Shown: positions 3-15,530 of the stretch, in pieces | How positions within the stretch are numbered: the first letter of the stretch is position 1 | How the letters are laid out: each line of letters starts with the position of its first letter | NCBI GenBank assembly: GCA_963759275.1 | Contig: CAVWYZ010000014.1 | Span: forward strand, 865,201 to 929,200 | DNA: 64,000 bases | Origin: Candidatus Acidiferrales bacterium | GTDB lineage: Bacteria > Acidobacteriota > Terriglobia > Acidiferrales > UBA7541 | Reading direction: 5' to 3' | Position numbers and translations under genes: made by a program | Notes under the pieces: model-generated | Told to the model about the DNA's origin: nothing | Database searches by the model: none | What the model saw: only the letters and a program-made list of their open reading frames with translations

Positions 3-3000
3 AGCACGGCTGGGCCGACCACAGGATTGGCAACTGGAATTGGCGGCGGAGGACCGATCACGGTCTCCGCAACTTTCGGTTCCATCGTCAGCAGCACAAC
101 GGGCGGCGACGGAAATTTGACGGTTGTAGGAATCACGTCGTTGGTGCTCACGCCAGCCGCACCCACGGCTTATCTGGGGGACGCGAATCCTTTGAATCCT
201 GTGGGTACGCAAAACAATACCGTGGCATTCACGGCTACGGTCAACTATAGCGACGGCACTTCGACAAACGTGACGACGGCTGCCAACTGGAGCTCCGGCA
301 CTCCGGCGGTAGCAACGATCAGCAACACGGTGGGAACGCAGGGCCAAGCGACAATATTAATAGCGGGGACGAGCACGATCACTGCGACGTATGCGGGGGC
401 TTCGGGAAGCACCCTGTTGACAGTGTCGCCAGCGTTGCTAGAGTCGATCGCGCTGACCCCGACGAGCGTGTCGTTAAGCCTGATGGGCACGCAGCAATTC
501 ACAGCGACGGGCACGTTCAGTGACGGCACAAGTCAGGACGTTACCGCGCAAGTATCCTGGCTATCGGCGGACCCGTCGGTTGGAATCGCCCCGGGCGGGC
601 TGGCAACGGCACTCGGCTACAACGCGGGTGCGGCGATAACCGCGAGCGAGATTAACGCGGCAGGGACCACGATTATTTCTCCGTCAGCGACGGTGCTGGT
701 GCCAGCACCTACGCTGGTGATGATCACAGTCACACCTCCTTCGATATCCTTAGCTGCGGGATTCACGCAGCAGTTTGCCGCGACAGGAACGTATTCCGAC
801 GCGAGCGTGAAGGATGTGACTGCTCTAGTTACTTGGGGATCGAGCGATACGACGCTCGCAAGCATAACCAGCGGCGGCCTGGCTTCCGCGCTGAAGGTGG
901 GGATGGTTACGATATCGGCGACCTCCGGCAGTGTGGTAGGTTCCACGACGTTCACGGTGACAGCGCCGATCCTGCAGTCTGTTGCTGTTTGTCTTGGACC
1001 CTATCCCTCCTCGACCTGTGGCAGCAGTACGGTTTCGGTCGGCGTTACGTTGGGTCTGAATGCCACACAGCAATTTTCCGCGCTGGGGATTTACAGCGAC
1101 AGCAGTACGCAGGACCTTACCGCGACTGCAACATGGCAAGCGCACGATCCGATCGAAGTGAACATCAACAGCGCCGGGTTGGCGACGGTGATCGGAACGG
1201 ATAACGGTGCGCACGCGATTACCGCGAGTTACGGGACGATTGGGCCGTATCTCAACTCGAACACGGGATGGGTAACGGCGTCTTCGACACTGCCGATCTC
1301 GTGCCCGTCGCCGACCATCGATATGAGGATATTGGTGGTGAACAACACGGCGCAGGGTTATGCGGATTATCCGGCGATCCAACAGATTTTGAATTATGTG
1401 GGGACGCCATACGACGTGGTCGATGTTTCGAGTGCGGCCCCCACATTGTCCGATGGTGGCTGCCACGGTTATTACCAGGGTGTGATCTTTGCCTACGGCG
1501 GTGACTACTACAACATAGGCTCGTGGCAGGCGGCGTTGATTTCGTATGAGCAGACTTTTGGAGTGCGGCAGCTGAACTGGTATTCCGCGCCGGATCCCAA
1601 CTTTGGATTGGGTTACACCGGAACGCAACTAAACACGACCCCTCCACCGACCGGAACCGGAGCGTACACGGCGCCGTTCACGCTGGCAGCCGCGCCCGTT
1701 TTCTTTTATGCAAATACGACCACGCCGCTATCGATCACATATGCGGCGGTCGATTTGGCGACAGCCGCGCCCGCGGCGGGAGGTGCGTTAACCCCGCTAT
1801 TGCAAGATACCCAAGGCAATATTGTCTCTGCGATTTACACCCTCAACGGACAACAGTTCCTCACGCAGACGTTCGATAGCAACGCGTCTCTGACACACGA
1901 TCTGATCGTGGCGTACGGTTTGCTGAATTGGGTGACCAAGGGCGTGTTCTTGGGTGACTACCACGTGTACGCCACACAGTCGATCGACGACTTTTTCATC
2001 GACGATTCAGAATGGATACCGGGCACCGCGTGTCTTGCAAACCCATTGACGTTGGACCGCACAGCTCCGGACGCATCGAATCTGCCGGTGTTCCGGGTGA
2101 ACTCCGCCGACATGGCGCAGTTGGCGAAATGGCAGACAAACAAACAAGCAGATCCTCTCCTGGCGCAGTTTGAATTGACGATAGCGATGAACGGAGTAGG
2201 GACCACAGGGAACGGCGACTGGAGCGGTCTGATAGCGCCGATCATCTCTTCGTCCGCAGGCAGCGGAGCGGCGACCTTCACGGCACAAGACTTCGCGGCA
2301 TTAGCGGGCCAGACGGTTACCGTAACAAATACAACAAACGGTGGCGGGGTGCTCAACGGGACTTGGACGATCACTGCGGTGACCTCCAGCTCGGCGACCA
2401 CTCCCGGCACAACTACGTTTGTGGTAAGCATGCCGGGTGCACCAACTCTTATTACAACGGCGGAGAGAGGAGTAGCCGACAACCCGGGGAGCGCGACCGC
2501 GAGCATTGCTGACGATCTGACCGCGAATCTGCAAAGTTATCAACAGTCCTTTCATTGGATGAGTCACACCTATGATCATCCATCCACTTTGAACGGCCTG
2601 TGCCAGAGCACGCCCACCGGTACGGGTTGCGGTGATACGGATAATCCGGCGGTCGACGACATCGACCTGGAGATTCTGACGAACCGCTATGTGGCCTCGG
2701 ACCCGAGCGCCACGGCGGCGTGGATGCTAGACAGCGATCCAAGTGACGCGGTGAAGCAGCTCACGTTCAACGATTTCAACGCAGCCAACATCGTGACGCC
2801 GGGGGTAACCGGACTGAATGACCCGAATGTGCCCGCGTACCTATATAACGATGGGATTCGCTATGCGGTGAGCGATACATCGGTGGCAACGACGATCACT
2901 CCTCCGAACAACAACGGACCGAATCCTTCGCCGAATGTGGGGATCGTCAACAGCTACGCGCCCGGAATTTACGAGATTCCGCGGAAACCCAATGACATCT

Positions 3001-3659
3001 TCTATAACGTGGCGAATTGGGCCGACGATCAGGCCGAATTTGACTGCATTTATTCGTATTATGTACCGCCAGGATCACCGGTGGGCACCGTACCGGTGCC
3101 AGATCCACCGTTCAATACTTACAATGCCGCGCAAGTGCTGGACTTCACGAGCTCGGCGTTCCTGACCAACATGCTGATGGGCGACATGGATCCGGAAATG
3201 TTCCACCAGCCGGATCTGCACTTCTCGGACAATTATGTGGCGTTGAACAACGCGGCGCCGAGCGGCACCATTCCGGCGAGCGTGTCCAATTTTGTGGGCA
3301 CCAGCGGGACGCACGTGTCGTCGCTGCTATCGGACACCTACGATCTGACGTTCAGCAAGTACGAAGCGGTGTACAAGCTGCCAGTGCTGACGCCAACGCA
3401 GGATCAGTTGGGCGTGCTGATGCAGAATCGCAACTCGTTCAACTTATCAAATGTAACCGCGAGCATAGTCGGGGCCAACACCTCAAGCGCGACAATTACA
3501 ATTACGATGCCGACATCGGCAACAGTTCCGACGGCGATCATCCCAATTACTGGACTTGCTCTGCCACCCTTGACCCCTGGCTCAGAAATATATGGTGGGC
3601 AGAACATCGCGCACATCACCCTGACGCCGGGGCAGACCATCACGTTTTCCCTGAAATGA
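3..3659 (+). CDS. Large secreted protein, 5'-partial: several Big_2 Ig-like domains followed by an Agd3/CE18-like polysaccharide deacetylase module
   Basis: The frame is open to the window edge. Ig repeats of type SIALTPTSVSL..TQQFTATGTFSDGTSQDVT..V.W.S. C-terminal half has Agd3-like motifs: YEQTFGVRQL..Y..P, TQSIDDFFI (DD), MSHTYDH (HxxxH), EIPRKPNDIFYN, MFHQ. Confidence 0.8.
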   Translation, partial: STAGPTTGLATGIGGGGPITVSATFGSIVSSTTGGDGNLTVVGITSLVLTPAAPTAYLGDANPLNPVGTQNNTVAFTATVNYSDGTSTNVTTAANWSSGTPAVATISNTVGTQGQATILIAGTSTITATYAGASGSTLLTVSPALLESIALTPTSVSLSLMGTQQFTATGTFSDGTSQDVTAQVSWLSADPSVGIAPGGLATALGYNAGAAITASEINAAGTTIISPSATVLVPAPTLVMITVTPPSISLAAGFTQQFAATGTYSDASVKDVTALVTWGSSDTTLASITSGGLASALKVGMVTISATSGSVVGSTTFTVTAPILQSVAVCLGPYPSSTCGSSTVSVGVTLGLNATQQFSALGIYSDSSTQDLTATATWQAHDPIEVNINSAGLATVIGTDNGAHAITASYGTIGPYLNSNTGWVTASSTLPISCPSPTIDMRILVVNNTAQGYADYPAIQQILNYVGTPYDVVDVSSAAPTLSDGGCHGYYQGVIFAYGGDYYNIGSWQAALISYEQTFGVRQLNWYSAPDPNFGLGYTGTQLNTTPPPTGTGAYTAPFTLAAAPVFFYANTTTPLSITYAAVDLATAAPAAGGALTPLLQDTQGNIVSAIYTLNGQQFLTQTFDSNASLTHDLIVAYGLLNWVTKGVFLGDYHVYATQSIDDFFIDDSEWIPGTACLANPLTLDRTAPDASNLPVFRVNSADMAQLAKWQTNKQADPLLAQFELTIAMNGVGTTGNGDWSGLIAPIISSSAGSGAATFTAQDFAALAGQTVTVTNTTNGGGVLNGTWTITAVTSSSATTPGTTTFVVSMPGAPTLITTAERGVADNPGSATASIADDLTANLQSYQQSFHWMSHTYDHPSTLNGLCQSTPTGTGCGDTDNPAVDDIDLEILTNRYVASDPSATAAWMLDSDPSDAVKQLTFNDFNAANIVTPGVTGLNDPNVPAYLYNDGIRYAVSDTSVATTITPPNNNGPNPSPNVGIVNSYAPGIYEIPRKPNDIFYNVANWADDQAEFDCIYSYYVPPGSPVGTVPVPDPPFNTYNAAQVLDFTSSAFLTNMLMGDMDPEMFHQPDLHFSDNYVALNNAAPSGTIPASVSNFVGTSGTHVSSLLSDTYDLTFSKYEAVYKLPVLTPTQDQLGVLMQNRNSFNLSNVTASIVGANTSSATITITMPTSATVPTAIIPITGLALPPLTPGSEIYGGQNIAHITLTPGQTITFSLK

Positions 3660-3746
3660 CAGATTTTGGGGCCGGGTTTGAGTTTTTGACAAATACCCGG
3701 GGTGCAGTCGTTCGACCTAAGTAAAGGACAGAGACGGAGGAACAGT

Positions 3747-4910
3747 GTGAGCCAGATTTTCGAAGCACTGACCATCGCGCATGATCGAGCTGTTGAGAAG
3801 CTCGTGGACCGGCAAGTCGATGCCGATGAAACGATCACCGTTGCACCGGAGCGTTTCGTTTTCACCCATCAGAAGATCAGAAATGGTTTGATCGTCGCCT
3901 TTTTTGTCGTGGGGTTGACCCTGCTGGCAACCAACTATGCTTTTAAAGGGAACGCTCTGGTTGCCAAAAGCCAGCCGATTTATGGAGTGGCGTTTGAAAG
4001 CACGGTGCATCCGGCAAGCGAATTCGGGATCACCGCGGACCTGAGCGGCACGGTGTCGAGCATTTCGGTAAAGGTGGGGGACAAGGTGCAACAGGGTCAG
4101 TCACTCTTGCACATGGATGGACGCGAAGCGGAACTAGCGCTAAAACAGGCCGGGGGAGAGCTGCGTGCGGCCGAAGCAAACCTGGAGGAATTTAATGCAC
4201 ATGCGGATGCGGACGCGCGTGTGGCGGAATCGCAAAGACGAGAACAACGCATTCCTTCACGGCAATTTCGAGATTCGCCGGAACGGGCAAAGGCCGCGTA
4301 TGACCTCGCACTGAGCAACTACAACCGTGCCAAGGCGTTAAACGATGCGGGAGTGATGTCAAAACAGGAGCTAGACGGGAAAGAGACGGAACTGCGCATC
4401 GCGCAAGATGATTTAGAGAATGCCAAGAAGCTCGCGGCGGCTTCCTCTACGCTAGAACAGGAGCAGGCGACCCAAGTTGATTCGCAGGCCGCCGTTGCCC
4501 GCGAACGATTGGAGCAGCAATTGAATCAGGCGCGGTTGACGTACGAGCGCGCCAAGGAACAAGCGGAAGCAAGAATGGTGCGGACCACGCAAGCAGGGGT
4601 AGTGTCTGAAATTCCGGTGCATCTTGGCGATCGCGTGACGGCGGGAACGATCTTAGTGCGCCTTGCAGAACTCGATCACATGATCGCAGAGGTCCCAGTT
4701 GCCGCACGGATGATTGCGGAACTAAAGGTCGGCCAGCCGGCACAAGTGATACTGCCGTCGTCGCCGCCGCAGCAGGTGGAGGGGAAGGTCAGACTTATTA
4801 ATCCACTGCCATCGGCGAACATGACGCATATCGTCGAAGTCGAATTCGACAATCCAACTCTCCTGCTGCTGGCGGGACAGAGCGCAGAGGTCCGGTTCTC
4901 CAAGCGATGA
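3747..4910 (+). CDS. HlyD-family membrane-fusion/periplasmic adaptor protein with an ExeB-like N-terminal helix
   Basis: GGAGG precedes GTG at 3747. One TM helix, biotinyl-lipoyl-like halves (SGTVSSISVKVGDKVQQGQSLL; AGVVSEIPVHLGDRVTAGTIL), long coiled coil and beta-barrel end. N-terminus reads MSQIFEALTIAHDR. Confidence 0.8.
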   Translation: MSQIFEALTIAHDRAVEKLVDRQVDADETITVAPERFVFTHQKIRNGLIVAFFVVGLTLLATNYAFKGNALVAKSQPIYGVAFESTVHPASEFGITADLSGTVSSISVKVGDKVQQGQSLLHMDGREAELALKQAGGELRAAEANLEEFNAHADADARVAESQRREQRIPSRQFRDSPERAKAAYDLALSNYNRAKALNDAGVMSKQELDGKETELRIAQDDLENAKKLAAASSTLEQEQATQVDSQAAVARERLEQQLNQARLTYERAKEQAEARMVRTTQAGVVSEIPVHLGDRVTAGTILVRLAELDHMIAEVPVAARMIAELKVGQPAQVILPSSPPQQVEGKVRLINPLPSANMTHIVEVEFDNPTLLLLAGQSAEVRFSKR

Positions 4911-6415
4911 CTGCAAAAAGACGGATATCTGTACTGTTAACGACAGAAGGCACCTATCCCTTCTACACCGGAGGTGTGAGCAAGTGGTGCGATCGACTGA
5001 CCCAGGGTTTGCCGGACGTGGATTTTGACGTGCTCGCCGTCGTCACGAACCCGTATCCGGAGGCCAAGTACGAACTCGCGGATAACGTGCGGACGGTGAC
5101 TAAAGTTCCGCAATGGGGCCTACTGCAGCCTGCAGAATTCTCGCGCCACCAACCGACATCACTGGTTCTGCGCAACATGTGGGACACAACAAGACAAGTG
5201 ATCGAGGATCGCTTCCGGCCGATCTTTGAGCGATTCCTTTCCCTGGTGTTTTCGTCGTCCTGCGACAAAGAGGAACTGGGCGAAGCGCTACTTGATCTGC
5301 AACGTTATTTTCAACACTACGATTATGCGCGCACGATGAACTCGCTGGACGCGTGGGACGTGCTTCAGCATGCGGTGCATGCCTCATGGGAATGCCGCCC
5401 GGCGGCCGCAGAGGATCCGACTTTGGCCGAGGTGAAAGAAGCGTACCGGTTGCTGTATCACCTTCTGATGGTCCTGCACTTTCCGATCCCGGAGGCGGAT
5501 ATTACACATTCTTCGTCCGCCGGCTTCTGTGGGCTGCCTTGCATCTTGGCGAAGCTGGTACACGGTACGCCTTACCTGCTGACCGAGCACGGGGTTTATT
5601 TGCGGGAACAGTATCTGAATCTGCGTCGTCAACTGAAATCGGTCTTCGTACGATGGTTCCTGTGCCGGTTGGTTGAAAACGTGGTCGAGCTGAACTATTT
5701 CTTTGCCGACCAAATTTCCCCGGTATGCGCTTTCAATTCCCGCTGGGAAGAACATTTAGGCGTACCGCGAGACAGAATCAAGGTGGTGTTTAACGGCGTC
5801 GATCCCGAGCGATTCCAGCCTAGCGAACGGGAGCACAATGACAGGCCGTTAGTTTCCACCGTAGGGCTTATTTACCCACTGAAAGGCCAACTCGATTTGA
5901 TTCACGCGGCGGCCATCGTCAAGGAGAGCTACCGGGACCTGGAAATACGCTTTTATGGCGCGTCCAACGACCCCGTCTATTACGGGGAGTGCGAGCGCAG
6001 GGTCGCCGAACTGCACCTGGAAAACAATGTCACTTTCGCGGGAACCACAAAGGAGCCCTGGAAGGCCTACAGCAACGCGGATGTTGTGGCGATTCCGAGT
6101 ATCTCCGAGGGGTTTCCATTCGCGGCGTTGGAGGCCATGTTGTGCGGGTCAGCAATTGTGGCGACGGACGTGGGCGGCGTAGCAGAGGCCATCGGCGATT
6201 GCGGACTGCTGGTCCCCGCGAAGACGCCGCAAGCGATGGCCGAGGCGATCACCTTTTTGCTGAGTGACCCAGCGACGCGCGAACGACTGGGCCGGAATGC
6301 GCGTGCGAGAGCTTTGGCACACTTTACAGAGCAACAATTTCTAGATTCCTACGAAAACACCTACCAGCAGTTGCGAGACTACCGTCCGCAGGGACTTACC
6401 AGGCGTCGCGCGTAA
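4907..6415 (+). CDS. pelF: PelF-type GT4 glycosyltransferase (DUF3492 + Glycos_transf_1)
   Basis: N-terminal VLLTTEGTYPFYTGGVSKWC, LLTEHGVYLRE, and the GT4 signature SISEGFPFAALEAM. ATGA overlap with the upstream gene. Confidence 0.85.
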   Translation: MTAKRRISVLLTTEGTYPFYTGGVSKWCDRLTQGLPDVDFDVLAVVTNPYPEAKYELADNVRTVTKVPQWGLLQPAEFSRHQPTSLVLRNMWDTTRQVIEDRFRPIFERFLSLVFSSSCDKEELGEALLDLQRYFQHYDYARTMNSLDAWDVLQHAVHASWECRPAAAEDPTLAEVKEAYRLLYHLLMVLHFPIPEADITHSSSAGFCGLPCILAKLVHGTPYLLTEHGVYLREQYLNLRRQLKSVFVRWFLCRLVENVVELNYFFADQISPVCAFNSRWEEHLGVPRDRIKVVFNGVDPERFQPSEREHNDRPLVSTVGLIYPLKGQLDLIHAAAIVKESYRDLEIRFYGASNDPVYYGECERRVAELHLENNVTFAGTTKEPWKAYSNADVVAIPSISEGFPFAALEAMLCGSAIVATDVGGVAEAIGDCGLLVPAKTPQAMAEAITFLLSDPATRERLGRNARARALAHFTEQQFLDSYENTYQQLRDYRPQGLTRRRA

Positions 6416-6429
6416 ATCGGAGAACGAAT

Positions 6430-7566
6430 GTGCGGTCTGTTTGGATCGTGTTGGCTATGATGACCATCGCAGCGACTAACCTGTCGTTCGGGCAAAACGC
6501 GCAGGCAGGGAACGCGGTATCGGTCCGGCTGGCGATTTACTATGGCTATCCAAGCCTGGTCAACGAGGCCCGTGGAGATGTGGCGAAGGCCGCGAGCGTG
6601 TTCAGTGCTTATGATGTGGTGGTGCTGGGAGACGGGTTGGAGTTTGCAGACGTGAAGCAGGGCCGTTATCCGGAAGGCGATCCCGGAGAACATCTGAAAT
6701 CGATGCAGATTATTGCTGCCGTACAGAAGCGCAGCCCTACTACCCGCTTTTACGGATATATATGCCTCGGAGAAATTCCGTGGCCGAAAGGTCAACAAAC
6801 AGTACTCTCTCTTCAACTGCTTCAAGAGCGGATAGAGCTTTGGAAACAGATGGGCGTGTCCGGGATTTTTCTAGATGAGGCAGGTTACGACTATGCGGCG
6901 GTGACCCGGGAGCGACAGAACTTCGCGGTGCGGACGATCCACGAATTGGGACTGAGCGCGTTCATGAATGCTTATTTTATCGACCACTTGTTTAGTCCTG
7001 ACGACAATTTACCCCACTCAGCGGGAACGGGGAAGAATCCAAAACATCTCGCCGCCCTATTAGATAGGCGCGATCTTTTCCTGCTTGAGTCGTTCCAAGT
7101 GAAGAGCGGCGCATACGAAAGCATCGATGCGGCGCAGTCGCGGATAGACCGCGCGCTCGGTTATAGGCGTCAATTCGGGTCTAAGGTTTTCGCGACAACG
7201 ACGACTACAGTCCAAGAACCATTTAACGGCGAAAAATTCAACTATGCCTGGTGGACCGCACGATTGTACGGCCTGGACGGATTCAGTTGGGGAGAGCCTG
7301 AGTTTTCGGCGCTGAACAACTTACTCCCCGATCGTCGGTGCGCCACGACCACAGTGCCGCCGTTCGAGCCTCGGTCCGCCGTTCAGTCCGACGGCGAACA
7401 TCTCTGGAGGAAAGCAGGGCCTTACCTGGTAGTCGTCGACACGGAGAAGCACACGGTTCGCCGGATCCTGCAGGTTGATCGCGTCGTCGAAGCAAAATCG
7501 ATTCCCGCGCTGCTGAGTCCGTCGCCAAAGAACTCTCCATTGACATGTGAGGGAGCCGCGGAATGA
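6430..7566 (+). CDS. Secreted TIM-barrel glycoside hydrolase, PelA-hydrolase/Ega3/Sph3-like (alpha-1,4-galactosaminidase candidate)
   Basis: Signal peptide. Motifs IYYGYP, YDVVVLG, FYGYICLG, GVSGIFLDEAGYD and FLLESF give two candidate catalytic acids. Context is next to pelF. Confidence 0.6.
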   Translation: MRSVWIVLAMMTIAATNLSFGQNAQAGNAVSVRLAIYYGYPSLVNEARGDVAKAASVFSAYDVVVLGDGLEFADVKQGRYPEGDPGEHLKSMQIIAAVQKRSPTTRFYGYICLGEIPWPKGQQTVLSLQLLQERIELWKQMGVSGIFLDEAGYDYAAVTRERQNFAVRTIHELGLSAFMNAYFIDHLFSPDDNLPHSAGTGKNPKHLAALLDRRDLFLLESFQVKSGAYESIDAAQSRIDRALGYRRQFGSKVFATTTTTVQEPFNGEKFNYAWWTARLYGLDGFSWGEPEFSALNNLLPDRRCATTTVPPFEPRSAVQSDGEHLWRKAGPYLVVVDTEKHTVRRILQVDRVVEAKSIPALLSPSPKNSPLTCEGAAE

Positions 7567-9104
7567 GCCTGAATCCAAGCGAGATCGAAGAACAACTGCG
7601 CAACGACGGGAATAGTAAAGCGCGATTTCTTAGTCACGGCGAGGTCGCGGCCTTGCTCGAATCGCTCGGTTACAACGATCGTTTGTCCAAGCATCTCGGC
7701 TACTCGAACATCTTCACGTTCGCAGAACATCTCTTTTTAAATCTTCAACGGGATCCGGCGGTAGCAAACCGGCCGGCACAAATATCCGGCGAGCGGTCAC
7801 TCTTAACGGAGTTGCAGTACGCGTTGCGCAAGTTCTCGCTCAGCCTTGCCTATGTCATTCCCTGGATGGCTCTGCTGGTCATGGAGTATCTGCGGCCGAA
7901 TGCGCTCAACGTCCCTCCGGAATTGGGCGGCGCCTTAAGCCTTGCGTTGATCGGGAGCCTGATCGCGACGGGTGGATTCATTCAGGTAATCTCCCGTGGC
8001 GGCAACTTCTATTTTGGTCTGAAAGAGCCTTCCCTGGCGCGACACACGTGCATGAAATTTTTGAACCTGGGATTGACTACCAGCCTACTGCTGGGGTTGC
8101 TGGGTATGATTGTGGGAGCGTACTTCCACCTTTTCGCTGGGCACTATCTCTTGCTGGCGGCGATAAACTTTGTGGCCCTTAGTGCGCTTTGGATGTACTG
8201 CGCCGTCTTATCGGTGCAAGGCCTTGGTTGGTGTGTGCTGCTGGTGTTCTTACTGAGCGCAATGATATGCGGATGCGCGAAGGTTCTGGCCGGCGCGGGA
8301 AATACTCTGCTGTTAACCCTCTGGCCGGTAACGGCTGCCTTGTGCGCCTTTGCCGCAATGCACATGGGTTTCCGCCGTGCTGAAGCTAAAATGTCTGGCG
8401 CTCGTAATAGTGCGAGACCCCGGTTCGGGGTGCAGTCCATCTCCTTGCTGTCGTTTTTCCTGTACGGCACTTTTTATTTCAGCTTTTTATTCGCAGACCG
8501 ACTCGCGGCCGGCAGCGCTGTGCCTTGGGTTTCCGGCCTGAGTTTTGGGATCGACCCGGCTTATAAGAAAGGGATGGACCTGGTTCTGCTGGCCTTCCTG
8601 ATCACCGCGGCAGTGGTGGAGTATCTCAGCGACTCATTCTTGCGATTCTGGCGGGGATTAGCAGCAGAGTTGGAGCAGTCTCGCAATGAAGAATTGGTCC
8701 TAAAACTACGGAAGCGGCACTGGAAAATGATCGGAATCATCCTGTTGATGTTTGTGGTTGTTGCCACGGGTGCGTGGTTCGCATTTTCCCGCGCGAGCGG
8801 AGCGCTACTTTCACCCCGGTTGTTGGAAACGGCGGCGATTGGGGGACTTGGTTATCTAATGTTGAGTATTGCGCTGCTGGAAATCGTTATCTTGTCGAGC
8901 ATCAATTCCACTTCTTTGGCAATGGTCGCCACTGCATTAGGACTTGCCGTGAATCTGGTCACAGGCTACGGGCTGAGTCACTTTGGAGGAGTGCAGTATG
9001 CCGCTGGTGGATTACTTGCCGGGGCGGCAGTGCTGTTATGGACCTGTAACGCGGCGGTAAGGCAAGTACTGCGCCGACCGGATTATCACTATTCCATTTC
9101 CTGA
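7563..9104 (+). CDS. PelG-like multi-pass exporter/flippase
   Basis: About 12 hydrophobic segments after a soluble N-terminal region, FYFSFLFADR motif, position in a pelF operon, ATGA overlap. Confidence 0.55.
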   Translation: MSLNPSEIEEQLRNDGNSKARFLSHGEVAALLESLGYNDRLSKHLGYSNIFTFAEHLFLNLQRDPAVANRPAQISGERSLLTELQYALRKFSLSLAYVIPWMALLVMEYLRPNALNVPPELGGALSLALIGSLIATGGFIQVISRGGNFYFGLKEPSLARHTCMKFLNLGLTTSLLLGLLGMIVGAYFHLFAGHYLLLAAINFVALSALWMYCAVLSVQGLGWCVLLVFLLSAMICGCAKVLAGAGNTLLLTLWPVTAALCAFAAMHMGFRRAEAKMSGARNSARPRFGVQSISLLSFFLYGTFYFSFLFADRLAAGSAVPWVSGLSFGIDPAYKKGMDLVLLAFLITAAVVEYLSDSFLRFWRGLAAELEQSRNEELVLKLRKRHWKMIGIILLMFVVVATGAWFAFSRASGALLSPRLLETAAIGGLGYLMLSIALLEIVILSSINSTSLAMVATALGLAVNLVTGYGLSHFGGVQYAAGGLLAGAAVLLWTCNAAVRQVLRRPDYHYSIS

Positions 9105-9113
9105 GCTCTCCCA

Positions 9114-10874
9114 GTGCCGCCAATCGATCTAGTGCGAGCCGTTTGGATCTTATTCATTTTTACCACGGTGTTTTTCTTCGCGCCGATCTATCTCACCCCA
9201 ACTCGAGAGAGCCCCATGCAACTCCTCCGAGTAGTCGGCAACTTTGTCCGCGCACTACTCGCGGTGGCGATCGTGAGTGTAGTGCTGTCGCGTCTGAAGA
9301 TTTTCAACGCCACCACAATGCTTTTGCTTTTGCTACTTACACTGGTGATCGCCTGGGTGCGCAAGCGCGCGGCAACTTCCCGCGATTGGCTTACAGGCTT
9401 GCAAGAAGCGGTAATCGGAATCGTACGCTTCAGCGAAGGTCAATCGCGCAGTCGTCTCAGGAATGCACCTGCTCCGACCGAACAACGCGAAACGACGTCA
9501 CTTTTGACGGCTCTGCGAGGGAAAGAAATGCTGGCCGTAGCCCTCGTTGTGGTGGTGATCACGACGGGCGTCCTGTTCTTTGCACATTCTTTCCGTGAAC
9601 TGCGTCTCGACCAACCCGAGCAATATGAAGAGTTACTTCGGGGGCGAGAACTGATGCTTAACCTGCCTGTCCACGATCGTCCAGTAGTGTTCCCGTCTGT
9701 GGTGGCGACGATTGCGTTCCTTAGCAGTGCGGATCCAATGGACGTTACGCGCTTCCTAACGCCGGTGTTTGAATTATTCCTGGTTTTTGCGGCTGGCCTC
9801 TTGATTTTCGTATGCACCCGTGGCGCTGTGACCGCCATCGCGGCTGTCTATTGTTTAGGAACAGCCGCTTTCCAGTTCAGCGGAGGTGACGGAGCCGTAC
9901 CGATTTCCGCCGCGGAAAAGATCGAAAGCCTCCTCCGGAGCTCGTTGACAAGAACGCGAGGAAGTCCCGAGTTCGAAATTGGGCTGTTGTGCGTGGTGTT
10001 GACCCTGGCATTTCTGACGACCTGGCTCGAAGACGGCCGGGACTGGGATTCGCTGGTGGACGCAGCGTGCTGCGTGGTGATAGTCGCGGTGGCGTCTCCG
10101 TTTTTGCTTCTCGTTTGTATGATAGCGGCGGGATCGGTGCTGCTTCGACCGGTGGCGGGAATTGCAGCGTTTGTCCTCGTTTCGTACGGCTTGGCCACCT
10201 ACGGCGTGCTGTCTGGCGATCTGAGCGTTCCGCACGGGGGGTATCTGATTCTTGCGCTCGCCGCGGTATTGGGCGTGGGCTGCCTTCTGGGAATAATCGA
10301 ATCGAGATTGCTGGTGCCCATGGGAAAGACCGCCGAGCGAACACTTTTATTTGCTTACGTAGCCGTCGCCGTTCTGGTATTCCGTCCGCACCCGGTTGCT
10401 GCCCAATACCTTGAATACGAAAAAGCGGCTCGTGAAACGCAAGTGATTGCCGATCGATTCCCGCGTCAAACATGGGCCGTTGTGGCTCCCATAGAGCAAT
10501 TGGCGGAAACCCTGGGGTTGGGAGGATACGAGGATTTAGCGAACTTTGTTGAGAAGTATAAGGATCAAGCCGCGAATCCTGAGTTTCGTATTCCTGACGT
10601 GCCGGAGGATTTGTTCATCTATGTCGAAAAGACGCCGTTCCAGTTTTTCTCGCGCGAACCCCAAGTCGTCCCGATGAGTGTACTGGCCGACAGCACCTAC
10701 CGCAGTTACCGTTCACCCGCAGGGCGGGCCAGCCTGGAGTCGGCTGCACTACGGCTCTGTGAAAGCTATCAGCAATCGCACGGCAGCTCGACGGACATAT
10801 TTTATGAGGACCAAGCTCTGCGCATCTATCATTTGCGCCGGGAACCCAATTCGAAAACGGGAACAGGAGGCTGA
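9114..10874 (+). CDS. Unknown multi-pass membrane protein with a C-terminal extracytoplasmic domain (possible GT-C-like or polysaccharide-modifying enzyme)
   Basis: Many TM segments, then a soluble C-terminal domain (EYEKAARET..WAVVAPIEQL..LFIYVEKTPF..YED..LRIY). Tightly linked to the operon. Confidence 0.55.
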   Translation: MPPIDLVRAVWILFIFTTVFFFAPIYLTPTRESPMQLLRVVGNFVRALLAVAIVSVVLSRLKIFNATTMLLLLLLTLVIAWVRKRAATSRDWLTGLQEAVIGIVRFSEGQSRSRLRNAPAPTEQRETTSLLTALRGKEMLAVALVVVVITTGVLFFAHSFRELRLDQPEQYEELLRGRELMLNLPVHDRPVVFPSVVATIAFLSSADPMDVTRFLTPVFELFLVFAAGLLIFVCTRGAVTAIAAVYCLGTAAFQFSGGDGAVPISAAEKIESLLRSSLTRTRGSPEFEIGLLCVVLTLAFLTTWLEDGRDWDSLVDAACCVVIVAVASPFLLLVCMIAAGSVLLRPVAGIAAFVLVSYGLATYGVLSGDLSVPHGGYLILALAAVLGVGCLLGIIESRLLVPMGKTAERTLLFAYVAVAVLVFRPHPVAAQYLEYEKAARETQVIADRFPRQTWAVVAPIEQLAETLGLGGYEDLANFVEKYKDQAANPEFRIPDVPEDLFIYVEKTPFQFFSREPQVVPMSVLADSTYRSYRSPAGRASLESAALRLCESYQQSHGSSTDIFYEDQALRIYHLRREPNSKTGTGG

Positions 10875-10965: not shown

Positions 10966-11886
10966 ATGTACACCGACTTTTACAAGCTGACGCGCAATCC
11001 ATTTGAAATAACGCCCGATCCTTACTTTCTGTATTCCACGAAAAGGCATAAAGAGGCGCTGGCCGCGCTTTATTACGGAGTTCGCCAGCGCAAAGGGTTT
11101 GTGGTGCTGACCGGTGAAGTGGGCACGGGAAAGACGCTGCTGATCCGTTGTCTCTTGCAGCTATGCAAAGGCACGGACATCGCTACCGCGTACGTCTTCA
11201 ATAGCCGGTTGTCGACTCTAGAATTTCTGCAATACGCAGCAACTGATTTGGGCCTCGCCGCCAGTAACAAACCAAAAGGCGACATCCTGGTCGATTTGAA
11301 CCGGTTTCTCCTCAGTCGTTACCATAAAAAATTAACGACTATGATGGTCGTGGACGAGGCGCACCATCTCTCGACCGAAATTTTGGAAGAGATCCGCCTT
11401 CTTACGAATTTGGAGACAGCGGATGAAAAGCTGATCCAAATTGTTCTGGTGGGACAATCGGAACTGAGCGACAAGCTGGACTCCTACGAGTTGCGGCAGC
11501 TGAAACAGCGCATTGCACTGCGCGCTTATCTGGAGCCGCTGGATCTAGAGAACACCAAAGGGTACGTGCGCTGCAGACTTCAGCTCGCCGGAGCCAATTC
11601 CGTTGCGGCCGCTTTGCTTCCAGATGAAACGGTCGCGAGAATCCACCACTTCTCGCGGGGCATCCCGCGTTTGATCAACACCATCTGCGACAATGCGTTA
11701 CTTACAGCATTTGCAAGGCAATTAACGAGTGTGCCCGCCAGCGTCATCGACGAAGTCGCTGAAGAACTGCGATTGCATGTCGGACGGCTGCGCAGTTTGT
11801 CGCTGTTCGAGATGGCTAAGGATCCGGATCAAACGCTGTCCGCTGGACAGAGGCTGCTGGAACTGCGGCAACACCAAAGTCTGTAG
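10966..11886 (+). CDS. ExeA/GspA-like AAA ATPase lacking the C-terminal peptidoglycan-binding part
   Basis: MY..FYKL..NPFEITPDP.FLY, Walker A GEVGTGKT, Walker B MVVDEAHHL, IVLVGQSEL, GIPRLINTICDNALL. Confidence 0.9.
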   Translation: MYTDFYKLTRNPFEITPDPYFLYSTKRHKEALAALYYGVRQRKGFVVLTGEVGTGKTLLIRCLLQLCKGTDIATAYVFNSRLSTLEFLQYAATDLGLAASNKPKGDILVDLNRFLLSRYHKKLTTMMVVDEAHHLSTEILEEIRLLTNLETADEKLIQIVLVGQSELSDKLDSYELRQLKQRIALRAYLEPLDLENTKGYVRCRLQLAGANSVAAALLPDETVARIHHFSRGIPRLINTICDNALLTAFARQLTSVPASVIDEVAEELRLHVGRLRSLSLFEMAKDPDQTLSAGQRLLELRQHQSL

Positions 11887-12086: not shown

Positions 12087-15000
12087 ATGACGTTTTGTGG
12101 CAAACGAGTGGGTAGTTGCTGCCCAACTTTATGGGCGATGCTAACGTTTTTTGTTGTCCTGACAATGACACTGCAAGGTTGCGCGACGACGAGTAAAACC
12201 AACGTTCAGACGATTCCTCCCCTCAGCGTTTCCGTTTCTTCGCTGCCGAATGGACAGGTTGGAACGGCGTACACCGCCATGCTCACCGCAACCGGCGGAG
12301 CTACCCCGTATTCGTGGACGCTGGCCAGTGGGACACTGCCGGCAGGGCTTGCGTTGAATGCTGCTACCGGCGCCATTACGGGGACACCCACGCAGGCAGT
12401 GTCGAATGCTGCGCTTAGCTTTAAGGTGACGGATTCCAGTGTTCCGCCACAGACACAAACAGCCAGCCTCACGCTAACCGTAGACGCCGCGGTGATTCCA
12501 GTGAGTATCACCACAACATCGCTACCAACTGCGACGGTGAACGTGGCATATTCGCAGCAACTGGCGGCGACGGGTGGCAGTGGAAGCTGCACGTGGACAC
12601 TGACTACGCCGGTAGCCGGCTTCTCACTGAGTGCTTCCGGGCTGTTGACTGGCACACCGACGAGCACGACGACTCTCTCGTTGCAAGTAAAAGCGACCGA
12701 CAGCAAGAGCAGCAGTAATTCCGCAACAGCGACGCTCTCGCTGCAGGTCAGCGCAGCAGTTACGCCTGTGAGTATCAGCACGACTACTCTACCAGTTGCC
12801 ACGGAGAGCACCGCCTATTCACAGCAACTCGCGGCCACCGGTGGCAGTGGCAGCTATACGTGGACGCTGACCGCGCCGGTGACTGGCTTTTCGCTGAGTG
12901 CCTCCGGACTGCTGACCGGCACACCGGCGAGCACGGCAACACTTTCGTTCCAAGTGAAGGTAACCGACAGCACGAACAGCAGTAACTTCGCGACGGCGAC
13001 GCTTTCGCTGACGGTCAATGCCACGGTGACCCCGGTGAAGATCACGACAACCACGTTGCCCGCGGCGACCGTGAACGTGGCGTACTCACAGCAACTGGCT
13101 GCGAGTGGTGGCAGTGGCAGCTACACGTGGACCTTGACCACTCCGGTGAGCGGCTTTTCGCTGAGCAGTTCTGGGTTACTGACCGGCACACCAACAAGCA
13201 CGACAACGCTTTCGTTCCAGGTGAAAGCGACGGACGCCACTAGCAGCAGCAACTTCGGGACCACTACGCTCTCGCTAACGGTCAATGCCACCGTGACTCC
13301 TGTAAGCGTTACTACAACGACGTTGCCTGCGGCCACGGTGAACACTGCCTACTCACAGCAACTGGCCGCGAGTGGTGGCAGTGGCAGCTACACGTGGACG
13401 TTGACCACTCCGGTGACGGGCTTCTCGCTGAGTAGTTCTGGGCTGTTGACCGGCACGCCGACAAGCACGACGACGCTTTCTTTCCAGGTGAAGGCCACAG
13501 ACACCAAAACCACGAGCAATTCCGGGACCGCGACCCTGTCGTTGACCGTTCATGCGGCCGCGACTCCTGTAAGCGTGACTACGACCACGTTGCCCGCGGC
13601 GACGGTGAACGTGGCGTACTCACAGCAACTGGCTGCGAGTGGTGGCAGTGGAACGTATAACTGGACGCTGACGACTCCGGTGACGGGCTTCGCATTGAGC
13701 AGCGCTGGGCTGCTGACCGGTACGCCCACAAGTACGACGACGCTTTCTTTTCAGGTGAAAGCGACGGACACCACCAGCGGCAGCAACTTCGGGACGGCGA
13801 CGTTATCCCTGAAGGTGAACGCGGCGGTGGTCCCTGTAAGCGTGACCACAACGACGTTGCCCGCGGCGACGGTGAACGTGGCGTACTCACAGCAACTGGC
13901 CGCGAGTGGTGGAAGTGGAACGTATAACTGGACGCTGACCACTCCGGTGACGGGCTTTTCGTTGAGCAGTTCAGGGCTGCTGACCGGCACACCAACAAGC
14001 ACGACGACGCTTTCGTTCCAGGTGAAAGCGACGGACTCCACCAATAGCAGCGACTCTGGAACCGCCACACTGACGTTATCGGTCAACGCTGCTATTAGCG
14101 GGTCAGCCTTCTACGTTTCTCCTTCCGGAAGCGATTCGAATACCGGCACGCAGTTATCACCGTGGAAGACCATTCAGCACGCGGCCAATTCCGTGCACGC
14201 GGGAGACACCATTTACGTGCGCGCGGGGACCTACAACGAGTCCGTGACCATTGCGGTTTCGGGATCAGCAGCGGCCGGTCCGGTAATTTTCCAGAGCTAC
14301 CCCGGAGAGACGGCGATTGTGGACGGCACCGGGTTGACGCCATCCACTTCTGACGTGCAAGGGCTGTTTAACATCGAGGATGAGAGTTACGTCACGATTC
14401 AGGGATTCGAGATCCGTAACTACCAGACCTCGAGTTCCTCAGCCACGCCGGCGGGTATTTGGATCACCGGAGCAGGGAGCAACATCCAGATCCTGAACAA
14501 CGTGATTCACAACATCGTCACCACGTCGGAGGCCAGCGGCAACGCTTTTGGTATTGCGGTCTATGGGTCGGAAGCGCCCGCTGCGCTGGACAGTGTGACC
14601 ATCAGCGGCAACCAGGTGTACAGCTTGAAGACCGGCAACAGCGAGACGGTGAACGTGGATGGGAACGTGACGAACTTCGTGATCAACAACAACATCATCC
14701 ACGACAACGACAACATCGGCATCGATGTGATCGGATTCGAGGGAGTATCGCCGAATTCCGCGTACGACTATGCGCGGAACGGGGAAGTGAGCGGGAACAC
14801 GGTATACAACATATCGGCGATCAACAATCCGGGAGAAGGGAATGAGTACGATGCCGACGGGATCTACGTAGACGGGGGATCGCAAGTGGTGATCGAGCGC
14901 AACCTGGTGCACAACTGCGATCTGAACATCGAGGTGGCCAGCGAGCACAAAGGGCACGTCAGCAGCTACGTGACGGTGCGAAACAACCTGGTGTATGCGG

Positions 15001-15530
15001 GCAATTCCGTGGGCATTTCGATTGGCGGGTATGCCAGCAATGTGGGCGGCACGGACCACTGCACCATCGTGAACAACACGCTGTACGGCAACGACACGAA
15101 GAATACCGGCAGCGGGGAACTGCAAGTGCAGTACTACGCCACCAACAACATCTTCGAGAACAACATTGTGTACGCCACGTCGCAGGGTCTGCTGATCAAC
15201 AACTACACGAACAGCGAAGCGAATCCGGTGGTGGTGGATTACAACCTGTACTTCTCTTCGGTGAACTCGGGGTCGGCCGATTTTATCTGGAACGGCACAG
15301 ATCACACGGGATTTTCCGGCTACCAGTCGGCGACGGGGAACGACAGCCATTCCCAGTATGCCGATCCGCAGTTCCTGAGCCTGACAACACCGAACTTGCA
15401 GGTGCAAGCGACATCCCCGGCCGTGAATGGTGGGACGAACCTGGGGGCCGCGGTGGTGGGCACGGTGGACTATGCGGGTAATGCTCGCGTGCAAGGCAGC
15501 ACCATCGATATCGGCGCTTACGAACAGTAG
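12087..15530 (+). CDS. Predicted lipoprotein with 7 He_PIG (putative Ig) repeats and a C-terminal right-handed beta-helix (DUF1565/PL9-like) domain
   Basis: Lipobox LQGC at residue 32; seven ~89-aa repeats (TTTLP.ATVNVAYSQQLAASGGSG.Y.W); FYVSPSGSDSN.GT..SPWKTIQHA..GDTIYVRAGTYNE followed by beta-helix repeats. Confidence 0.85.
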   Translation: MTFCGKRVGSCCPTLWAMLTFFVVLTMTLQGCATTSKTNVQTIPPLSVSVSSLPNGQVGTAYTAMLTATGGATPYSWTLASGTLPAGLALNAATGAITGTPTQAVSNAALSFKVTDSSVPPQTQTASLTLTVDAAVIPVSITTTSLPTATVNVAYSQQLAATGGSGSCTWTLTTPVAGFSLSASGLLTGTPTSTTTLSLQVKATDSKSSSNSATATLSLQVSAAVTPVSISTTTLPVATESTAYSQQLAATGGSGSYTWTLTAPVTGFSLSASGLLTGTPASTATLSFQVKVTDSTNSSNFATATLSLTVNATVTPVKITTTTLPAATVNVAYSQQLAASGGSGSYTWTLTTPVSGFSLSSSGLLTGTPTSTTTLSFQVKATDATSSSNFGTTTLSLTVNATVTPVSVTTTTLPAATVNTAYSQQLAASGGSGSYTWTLTTPVTGFSLSSSGLLTGTPTSTTTLSFQVKATDTKTTSNSGTATLSLTVHAAATPVSVTTTTLPAATVNVAYSQQLAASGGSGTYNWTLTTPVTGFALSSAGLLTGTPTSTTTLSFQVKATDTTSGSNFGTATLSLKVNAAVVPVSVTTTTLPAATVNVAYSQQLAASGGSGTYNWTLTTPVTGFSLSSSGLLTGTPTSTTTLSFQVKATDSTNSSDSGTATLTLSVNAAISGSAFYVSPSGSDSNTGTQLSPWKTIQHAANSVHAGDTIYVRAGTYNESVTIAVSGSAAAGPVIFQSYPGETAIVDGTGLTPSTSDVQGLFNIEDESYVTIQGFEIRNYQTSSSSATPAGIWITGAGSNIQILNNVIHNIVTTSEASGNAFGIAVYGSEAPAALDSVTISGNQVYSLKTGNSETVNVDGNVTNFVINNNIIHDNDNIGIDVIGFEGVSPNSAYDYARNGEVSGNTVYNISAINNPGEGNEYDADGIYVDGGSQVVIERNLVHNCDLNIEVASEHKGHVSSYVTVRNNLVYAGNSVGISIGGYASNVGGTDHCTIVNNTLYGNDTKNTGSGELQVQYYATNNIFENNIVYATSQGLLINNYTNSEANPVVVDYNLYFSSVNSGSADFIWNGTDHTGFSGYQSATGNDSHSQYADPQFLSLTTPNLQVQATSPAVNGGTNLGAAVVGTVDYAGNARVQGSTIDIGAYEQ
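12501..14090 (+). repeat. Intragenic tandem repeat, 267-bp period (He_PIG repeats 2-7)
   Basis: gtgagtatca recurs at 12501 and 12768 (267 bp apart); later units are progressively more similar to each other. Confidence 0.85.
13570..15529 (+). repeat. Direct repeat copy 1 (~1.96 kb), partner at 17063-19022
   Basis: Constant offset of 3493 bp. About a dozen mismatches by eye, all in the first ~600 bp; the rest appears identical. Confidence 0.9.

Follow-up and report, generated by a model that had tools for sequence, protein, structure and literature searches.

How does an ATPase of the ExeA family find its partner within an envelope-spanning machine? ATPases of the ExeA/GspA kind are often encoded in loci for secretion, pili and exopolysaccharide, and a description of how they recognize their partners was not found in the literature we searched. 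The question is raised by a locus of Candidatus Acidiferrales bacterium, in a 64,000-nucleotide stretch of contig CAVWYZ010000014.1 (forward strand; the whole stretch is referred to here as the window, and its coordinates are used throughout). In the first 15.5 kb of the window, eight genes run in the same direction, with short gaps between them or overlapping; all lie on the plus strand, and among them are genes for an HlyD-type periplasmic adaptor (3747-4910) and for an ExeA-like AAA ATPase (10966-11886). Our best explanation, which we hold with a probability of roughly 0.6 on the basis of sequence comparison, is that the first ~17 residues of the adaptor, MSQIFEALTIAHDRAVE, form a cytoplasmic recognition peptide, hereafter the tag, for ATPases of the ExeA family.

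Is this peptide truly the start of the protein, and what does it precede? The codons at 3747-3800 (GTG AGC CAG ATT TTC GAA GCA CTG ACC ATC GCG CAT GAT CGA GCT GTT GAG AAG) encode (f)M-SQIFEALTIAHDRAVEK, and a Shine-Dalgarno sequence, GGAGG (3736-3740), stands six bases (3741-3746) ahead of the GTG start. An alternative GTG at 3702 appears in the list of open reading frames (ORFs), and 3747 is the supported start. Across 43 distinct orthologous DNA sequences the first codon of the tag is a start codon in every case (GTG in 35, ATG in 6 and TTG in 2), and an in-frame stop lies upstream at a median distance of 12 codons and a minimum of 4; a Shine-Dalgarno-like sequence is present in 24 of the 43, and database gene calls of the orthologues begin at the same residue. 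Because the tag codon is always a start codon and in-frame stops lie close upstream, the peptide is the true N terminus. The original prediction, made from the letters alone, had placed a helix at a start at 3747, ahead of the transmembrane segment of an HlyD protein in the same gene array as an ExeA-like ATPase; all of these points were confirmed, and the objection that the true start might lie elsewhere is not borne out by the 43 DNA sequences.

The 387-residue product of 3747-4910 is a genuine periplasmic adaptor of the HlyD/EmrA/MacA type, with a lipoyl domain, a long alpha-hairpin and a beta-barrel. It scores 117.5 bits against TIGR01730 (cut-off 94.9), 72 bits against PF16576 and 38 bits against PF13533, and also matches PF13437. 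In an AlphaFold2 model built from 22 orthologues, a helix at residues 4-21 (predicted local distance difference test, pLDDT, ~50) is followed by disorder at residues 22-40 and a transmembrane helix at residues 41-67, past which lie the lipoyl domain, helices 126-167, 178-200 and 206-274, and the beta-barrel; the top Foldseek matches are MacA and EmrA (4tko, template modelling, TM, scores 0.52/0.60). The N-terminal part can be divided into three. The tag, residues 1-18 ((f)MSQIFEALTIAHDRAVEK; 3747-3800), is supported by conservation, codon variation and helix prediction. A variable cytoplasmic linker, residues 19-40 (3801-3866), is predicted to be disordered, with pLDDT below 50 at residues 17-39; it is longer in most relatives, and the orthologue alignment has 20 to 50 unalignable residues there. 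Finally, a basic pre-membrane motif, S/T-H-x-K-I-R-N, and the transmembrane helix occupy residues 41-67 (3867-3947), with H41 and R45 invariant; in the orthologue alignment the motif reads S-H-K-K-I-R-N, just before the membrane helix.

The tag is conserved in 110 of 120 orthologues that span 55-100% identity. The pattern ^[MVL]S.I[FY][EDQ]AL is matched by 95 of them and a looser form by the 110, and the remaining ten are four truncated gene calls, four near variants and two degenerate sequences. The alignment consensus is M-S-x-I-F-[ED]-A-L-x-x-A-x-D-x-x-V-[ED], in which L8 is invariant and S2 and A7 almost so, while residues 20-60 are unalignable. At codons 5-8 (GCC/GCG/GCA/GCT; TTG/CTG/TTA/CTA/CTC) and 11 the nucleotides vary synonymously and the residues are fixed, which indicates selection on the peptide. 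GTG as start codon and the rare ATA for Ile4 are each found in 35 of the 43 distinct orthologues, a preference that may reflect selection on the rate of initiation or of early elongation in addition to the peptide constraint. No Pfam model covers these N-terminal peptides. A claim that the tag helix is amphipathic was dropped, as its hydrophobic moment is not significant relative to shuffled sequences.

The proposed partner is a soluble protein of 306 residues. The ATPase contains a Walker A motif, GEVGTGKT, and a Walker B motif, VVDEAH; it lacks a hydrophobic transmembrane segment and, with no PF01471 match, a peptidoglycan-binding domain. It matches PF13401 (AAA_22) at 89 bits, and its best model is TIGR03015, at 283.5 bits under a curated cut-off of 324.5; all seven ExeA-like paralogues of its own genome likewise fall under that cut-off. 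No structure of the ExeA family is present in the PDB, where the best match is a transposition ATPase (E 2e-5). Searches with TIGR03015 and PF16537 were uninformative in control genomes.

How closely do tag and ATPase travel together in the adaptor family? The cluster occurs in only 4 of 151 surveyed genomes from the same order, all of one genus, and relatives were therefore taken from metagenomes. Among 80 metagenome and six assembly loci, 34 distinct adaptors have enough downstream sequence to be assessed, and in 31 of these an orthologue of the ATPase (61-82% identity) lies between +7.2 and +8.6 kb relative to the start of the adaptor gene. A maximum-likelihood tree places the operon ATPase as ancestral and lost at least twice. 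The losses are accompanied by different fates of the tag. In L003, on a long branch, it has decayed to MIQRLSALEKAQ; in the L005/L085 clade the first eight residues are kept (MSKIFDAL, MSKISDAL) and the rest has changed. The genome of L006, from the lineage of L005, has six or more further ExeA-like ATPases; their identity to the ATPase at 10966-11886 does not exceed 46%, and hence the dedicated copy is missing there. L071 and L084 also have no ATPase right after the last membrane-protein gene and keep good tags, and P0133, an adaptor that heads the same gene cluster without the ATPase, has a purely kinase-type tag, MSRIHDALKRAEEER. On a profile of tags from tyrosine-kinase-like proteins (see below), the L085 tag, MSKISDALTVAREERL, outscores the canonical adaptor tag. 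The kinase-type tags of these two ATPase-less lineages suggest, from their sequences and as two events only, a retuning to a paralogous ATPase. Co-occurrence of tag and ATPase is not obligatory, and the idea that HlyD proteins with this motif always stand beside ExeA does not hold, as in at least four lineages the cluster has the tag but no ATPase. The gene at the position of the ATPase in L003/L004 was considered as a candidate and proved unrelated to ExeA. In the version of the cluster headed by P0133, a convergent gene for a GH114 hydrolase (L200:12237-13010) stands where the window has its ATPase.

The same N terminus is found on other proteins encoded next to ExeA-like ATPases. An ATPase-centered scan of one genome per species, with a three-sequence ATPase alignment (a six-paralogue alignment was too divergent for the purpose), yielded 80 loci. 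In 68 of them the next gene downstream starts MSRI[HFY][ED]AL[KQ][KR][AS]E and encodes a stand-alone tyrosine-kinase-like protein of ~300 residues (TIGR01007 above cut-off, TIGR03018); these loci are mostly from Acidobacteriota, with others from metagenome-assembled genomes (MAGs) that bear the labels Binatia, Methylomirabilota or Bacillota. Another of the 80 loci is an orthologous adaptor cluster. Annotated records extend the pattern to other partner families: in Aeromonas caviae ExeA is followed by ExeB, which starts MSTLLKALRRADQ, and in Ideonella a GspA-like ATPase is followed by GspB, which starts MSYILDALRRADAER. On pDV of D. vulgaris Hildenborough, the XrtA-associated autokinase, MSRIEEALARAARE, adjoins the XrtA-associated ATPase. 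Weaker forms are MSLLNEML after Legionella MshM, MEKLQAALEKARQ in a Rhodovulum locus and MSIIQKAMEKT in a Photobacterium locus. The presence of tag carriers beside ExeA-like ATPases in other phyla and partner families supports docking. The original prediction took as established that MS.I..AL.KA-type N termini mark ExeB/GspB and tyrosine-kinase-like proteins encoded beside ExeA-like ATPases; the association holds in these data, but as established knowledge it was not found in the literature searched, where queries with the motif text, and with ExeA together with exopolysaccharide and kinase, returned nothing linking the motif to ExeA-like ATPases.

Within its own genome, a six-frame pattern scan recovered only two clear tags, that of this adaptor and that of a kinase-like protein at C1:145697, and on contigs C3 and C6 the kinase-like genes that immediately follow ATPases begin with a variant, MSRNYELLRQAQ. 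Scored with a profile made from the kinase tags of other genomes, the adaptor start ranks second of 67,675 candidate starts, a ranking that is partly circular because the training tags were chosen by a pattern that the adaptor also fits. The C3 and C6 genes lie in near-identical copies, at least 12 kb long, of one region (C3:6080-22900 and C6:112389-124330), either a true duplication or an assembly duplicate, which holds a chain-length determinant, a 380-residue ExeA-like ATPase and the 255-residue kinase-like gene with the variant start. On C1 (143-147 kb; L173:8143-10612), the best-tagged kinase-like gene stands after a chain-length determinant, 64 kb from the nearest ExeA-like ATPase, unlike the 68 other genomes, in which kinase-like gene and ATPase are adjacent; next to the ATPase at C1:209809 comes a convergent 263-residue ORF in place of a kinase gene. 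Several scanned loci (L149, L154, L155, L157, L163 and L168) contain a subfamily of ExeA-like ATPases that starts MYNAFFGF and has no tag-bearing neighbor; it is found mostly in Bryobacterales/Solibacteraceae-type MAGs and in several loci follows an ORF with an N terminus like that of translation factor IF-3. In two loci (L149:5164-7893 and L170:5113-7849), the genes just upstream of the ATPase resemble, by eye only, CRISPR type III RAMP proteins.

What occupies this N-terminal position in more distant adaptors? A search that covered 1.84 billion cluster representatives, of which 150 were considered, found the tag only in the closest adaptor clade, all within the top 20 matches (P0067, P0133, P0134 and P0149, with a variant in P0142), and on no distant adaptor among more than 100 examined. 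Two relatives carry the ATPase itself. P0171, a 729-residue protein encoded by a single ORF on a 163-kb contig of a Blastocatellia MAG, opens with an ExeA-like ATPase (TIGR03015 positions 1-262), which a linker and a transmembrane helix connect to an adaptor that shares 37% identity with the one in the window. P0280 (736 residues, Blastocatellia, ten member sequences), likewise one ORF, has the same architecture and is 59% identical to P0171 across the full length of the latter. In both, the ATPase occupies exactly the position of the tag in the window's adaptor. The linker of P0171 (L199:10001-12190) contains, at about residue 286, TSLFERLAEPQ, which may be a remnant of the tag. Seven other relatives of ~600-670 residues, at search ranks 30-65 (P0159, P0167, P0176, P0177, P0186, P0189 and P0194), have an N-terminal receiver domain of the response-regulator type ahead of the membrane helix. 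We know of no description of this receiver-adaptor architecture; the receiver domain stands at the same N-terminal position, which indicates that this position hosts cytoplasmic input modules.

Collectively, these observations can be set beside ExeA. It is described as an assembly factor for ExeB and the secretin, not a transport motor, and formation of the ExeA-ExeB complex requires its ATPase domain (PMC4098917). Docking is favored because this domain is required for the complex and the pre-membrane stretch of ExeB starts with the tag; a docking site is also favored because the tag is kept and the linker is not, with the constraint acting on amino acids. The tag, its conservation, the predicted topology, the linkage, the sharing of the tag and the fusions are observations; physical binding, and what ATP hydrolysis does, we infer. 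The original prediction that the N-terminal helix docks the ATPase thus gains support that is comparative in kind, from the 31 of 34 linked loci, the natural fusions and the kinase-type tags where the ATPase is missing. Its further step, an energized exopolysaccharide export conduit, is more than the evidence allows: the role described for ExeA is in assembly, and the adaptor has no classical transporter or TolC partner in the operon.

Several findings weigh against the tag as a recognition peptide for ExeA-family ATPases. At least four lineages (L005/L085, L071, L084 and P0133) keep a good tag without the ATPase at its usual place, and on the tree only two losses of the ATPase can be placed as independent events. 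The 68 kinase loci are for the most part orthologous synteny and so amount to far fewer independent observations, about 10 of the 80 ATPase loci lack a tag-bearing neighbor, and GspB of E. coli K-12 has no tag; to these are added the circularity of the profile ranking, a hydrophobic moment of the tag helix no higher than in shuffled sequences, and the low confidence of the helix model. The persistence of the tag in lineages without the ATPase, the ATPases with no tag-bearing neighbor and the position of the best kinase tag of the genome, after a chain-length determinant and 64 kb from the nearest ATPase, would all be in line with a tag that binds some other shared component or acts alone, through homo-oligomerization, as an in-plane membrane helix or in contact with a glycosyltransferase or co-polymerase, its linkage to ExeA being indirect through envelope-export loci. 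We regard this, the main rival reading, as unlikely. GspB, the tyrosine-kinase-like proteins, the MshN-like proteins and the adaptor have no other domain or partner in common, the carriers include both soluble and membrane-anchored proteins, and the natural fusions place the ATPase itself where the tag would be; the version with a helix on the membrane surface has the nonsignificant hydrophobic moment against it.

N-terminal modules have been swapped within the adaptor clade, where tag, receiver domain and whole ATPase alternate, and the tag might accordingly be a relic of domain shuffling, an exon-like N-terminal piece from a kinase or GspB with no role in the adaptor. Across orthologues with identities as low as 55%, purifying selection on the peptide is nevertheless strong and the linker beside it is free to vary, and the tag is mostly lost in L003, an ATPase-less lineage on a long branch; we give a relic little credence. 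A nucleotide-level signal for translation initiation would account for the preference for GTG starts and for ATA at Ile4, but hardly for codons 5-8 and 11, which change synonymously with their residues fixed, or for the occurrence of the same peptide, encoded by other codons and started with ATG, in unrelated protein families and in different phyla, and we consider it very improbable that this explains the conservation. A recognition peptide for ExeA-family ATPases remains our preferred reading of the tag.

In which machine would the adaptor and its ATPase work? The gene upstream of the adaptor (27-3659, its reading frame still open at the left window edge) encodes Big_2 repeats (PF02368) followed, at its end, by an Agd3-type (CE18) deacetylase domain (PF25115, 40.4 bits), and such a gene lies upstream of the adaptor in all orthologous loci. 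Downstream, the ATG (4907) of a gene for a PelF-like GT4 glycosyltransferase with DUF3492 (4907-6415; NF038011 PelF, 157.8 bits at a cut-off of 100; PF11997, 161.6 bits) overlaps the adaptor stop in an ATGA. It is followed by genes for a 378-residue protein with a signal-peptide-like N terminus (6430-7566), a 513-residue polytopic protein (7563-9104) and a 586-residue polytopic protein with a soluble C-terminal part and no family assignment (9114-10874). The 378- and 586-residue proteins are kept in the cluster of relatives and match nothing in Pfam or NCBIfam, even with the threshold relaxed to E=5. For the 513-residue protein, none of the sequence-family models searched matches either; its AlphaFold2 model (predicted TM score 0.74) has a MOP-superfamily fold of the Wzx/MATE/MurJ kind, with Foldseek matches to WzxE (9g9n, E 1e-5), MATE and MurJ proteins, and this modelled fold fits a PelG-like role. 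Beyond the ATPase, a gene at 12087-15530 encodes, according to family matches, a lipoprotein with He_PIG repeats and a right-handed beta-helix, probably a polysaccharide lyase or hydrolase belonging to the same locus; similar genes lie near the cluster in relatives.

The PelF-type glycosyltransferase, the protein with a modelled MOP fold and the Agd3-type deacetylase give the locus a resemblance to Pel and galactosaminogalactan (GAG) systems. Family searches recognized no PelB, PelC, PelD (the receptor for cyclic di-GMP, c-di-GMP) or PelE among the operon proteins. No gene for an ABC, RND or MFS transporter or a TolC-type protein is present in or beside the operon; 39 OEP-domain matches (~20 genes) lie elsewhere in the genome, with none near C14:865-881 kb, and the orthologous loci share the same gene layout, likewise without an adjoining ABC, MFS or RND transporter.

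A mechanism can be proposed from these elements. The adaptor would be anchored with its N terminus inside by one transmembrane helix, leaving the tag and a flexible linker on the cytoplasmic side. The soluble 306-residue ATPase, which has no membrane anchor of its own, would bind the tag and so be tethered to the inner membrane under the adaptor, whose periplasmic part would work in a Pel/GAG-like machine with the PelF-type glycosyltransferase, the PelG-like protein, the second polytopic protein and the Agd3-type deacetylase. The ATPase would then drive or license assembly or multimerization of the adaptor-containing envelope complex, or gate that complex, rather than pump polymer; by analogy with ExeA, assembly, multimerization or gating is the most likely role, more so than powering export.

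Comparison with known systems shows what is shared and what is distinct. As in the ExeA-ExeB and GspA-GspB pairs of Aeromonas and Vibrio, an ExeA-type ATPase would be paired with a bitopic inner-membrane partner that reaches toward the outer membrane, and the short cytoplasmic N terminus of ExeB/GspB (MSxLLxAL in Aeromonas caviae and Ideonella) is like the MSxIxxAL type of the adaptor. Natural GspA-GspB fusions in Vibrio (PMC9239104) parallel P0171 and P0280. In contrast to ExeA, the window's ATPase is a soluble 306-residue protein without transmembrane segment or peptidoglycan-binding domain, and its proposed partner, unlike ExeB/GspB, has an adaptor fold, in a Pel/GAG-like operon without a secretin. 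PF16537, the GspB homology region, was not found in the genome, which is a weak negative since it has no match in any of 14 control genomes either. The system is a variation on the ExeA-ExeB theme, with the adaptor in place of GspB and a Pel/GAG-like polysaccharide system in place of type II secretion.

The XrtA/PEP-CTERM trio of chain-length determinant, tyrosine autokinase and TIGR03015 ATPase has an ATPase of the same subfamily and the same tag on its neighbor, as on pDV of D. vulgaris and in the 68 loci; the window differs in an ATPase score under the cut-off and in the tag being on an adaptor instead of a kinase. Exosortase (PF09721) was not found in its genome, which is 97% complete, and the ATPase consequently does not strictly belong to an XrtA system. 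In the PEP-CTERM paper (PMC1569441) the ATPase goes unmentioned. The closest functional analogue of the adaptor is Alg44 of the alginate system, in which an N-terminal input module in the cytoplasm is joined through a single transmembrane helix to a membrane-fusion-protein-like periplasmic part, within a synthase-type machine (PMC4436075). However, Alg44 senses c-di-GMP through a PilZ domain and works with the GT2 synthase Alg8, whereas the adaptor, whose cytoplasmic part of ~40 residues and remainder give no PilZ match, has a 17-residue tag with a proposed ATPase partner and a PelF-type GT4 glycosyltransferase. The tripartite-pump adaptors EmrA, MacA and HlyD share with it the periplasmic fold, the domain order and the N-terminal membrane anchor, but not the absence of an ABC, MFS or RND partner and of a TolC-type gene. 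Pel (PelA-G) and the fungal GAG system (Agd3) offer counterparts of the PelF-type GT4 enzyme, the putatively PelG-like protein with the modelled MOP fold and the Agd3-type deacetylase, while the adaptor, the ExeA-like ATPase and the unassigned polytopic protein stand in place of PelB, PelC, PelD and PelE.

These comparisons lead to a broader proposal, which we advance tentatively and at a little short of even odds. M-S-x-[IL]-x-[EDK]-A-L-x-[KR]-A-[ED] may be a portable client tag that defines the targets of ExeA/GspA/MshM/XrtA-type ATPases, having moved among at least four unrelated scaffolds and been retuned to a paralogue upon loss of the ATPase. The four scaffolds would be GspB of type II secretion, MshN-like pilus proteins, the stand-alone tyrosine kinases of Wzy-type export and the HlyD-type adaptor of a Pel/GAG-like system. 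Thanks to the natural ATPase::adaptor fusions, the connection between tag and ATPase is directly testable. If all partners share a tag of 12-17 residues, it would provide a sequence rule that predicts the clients of these ATPases in any genome, and a handle for cheap experiments. If the proposal is true, the ATPase family would be a general, tag-recruited assembly factor for envelope-spanning machines, and the shared tag would offer the first clue to how, with neither PelB nor PelC, a widespread Pel/GAG-like machine found in soil Acidobacteriota crosses the envelope.

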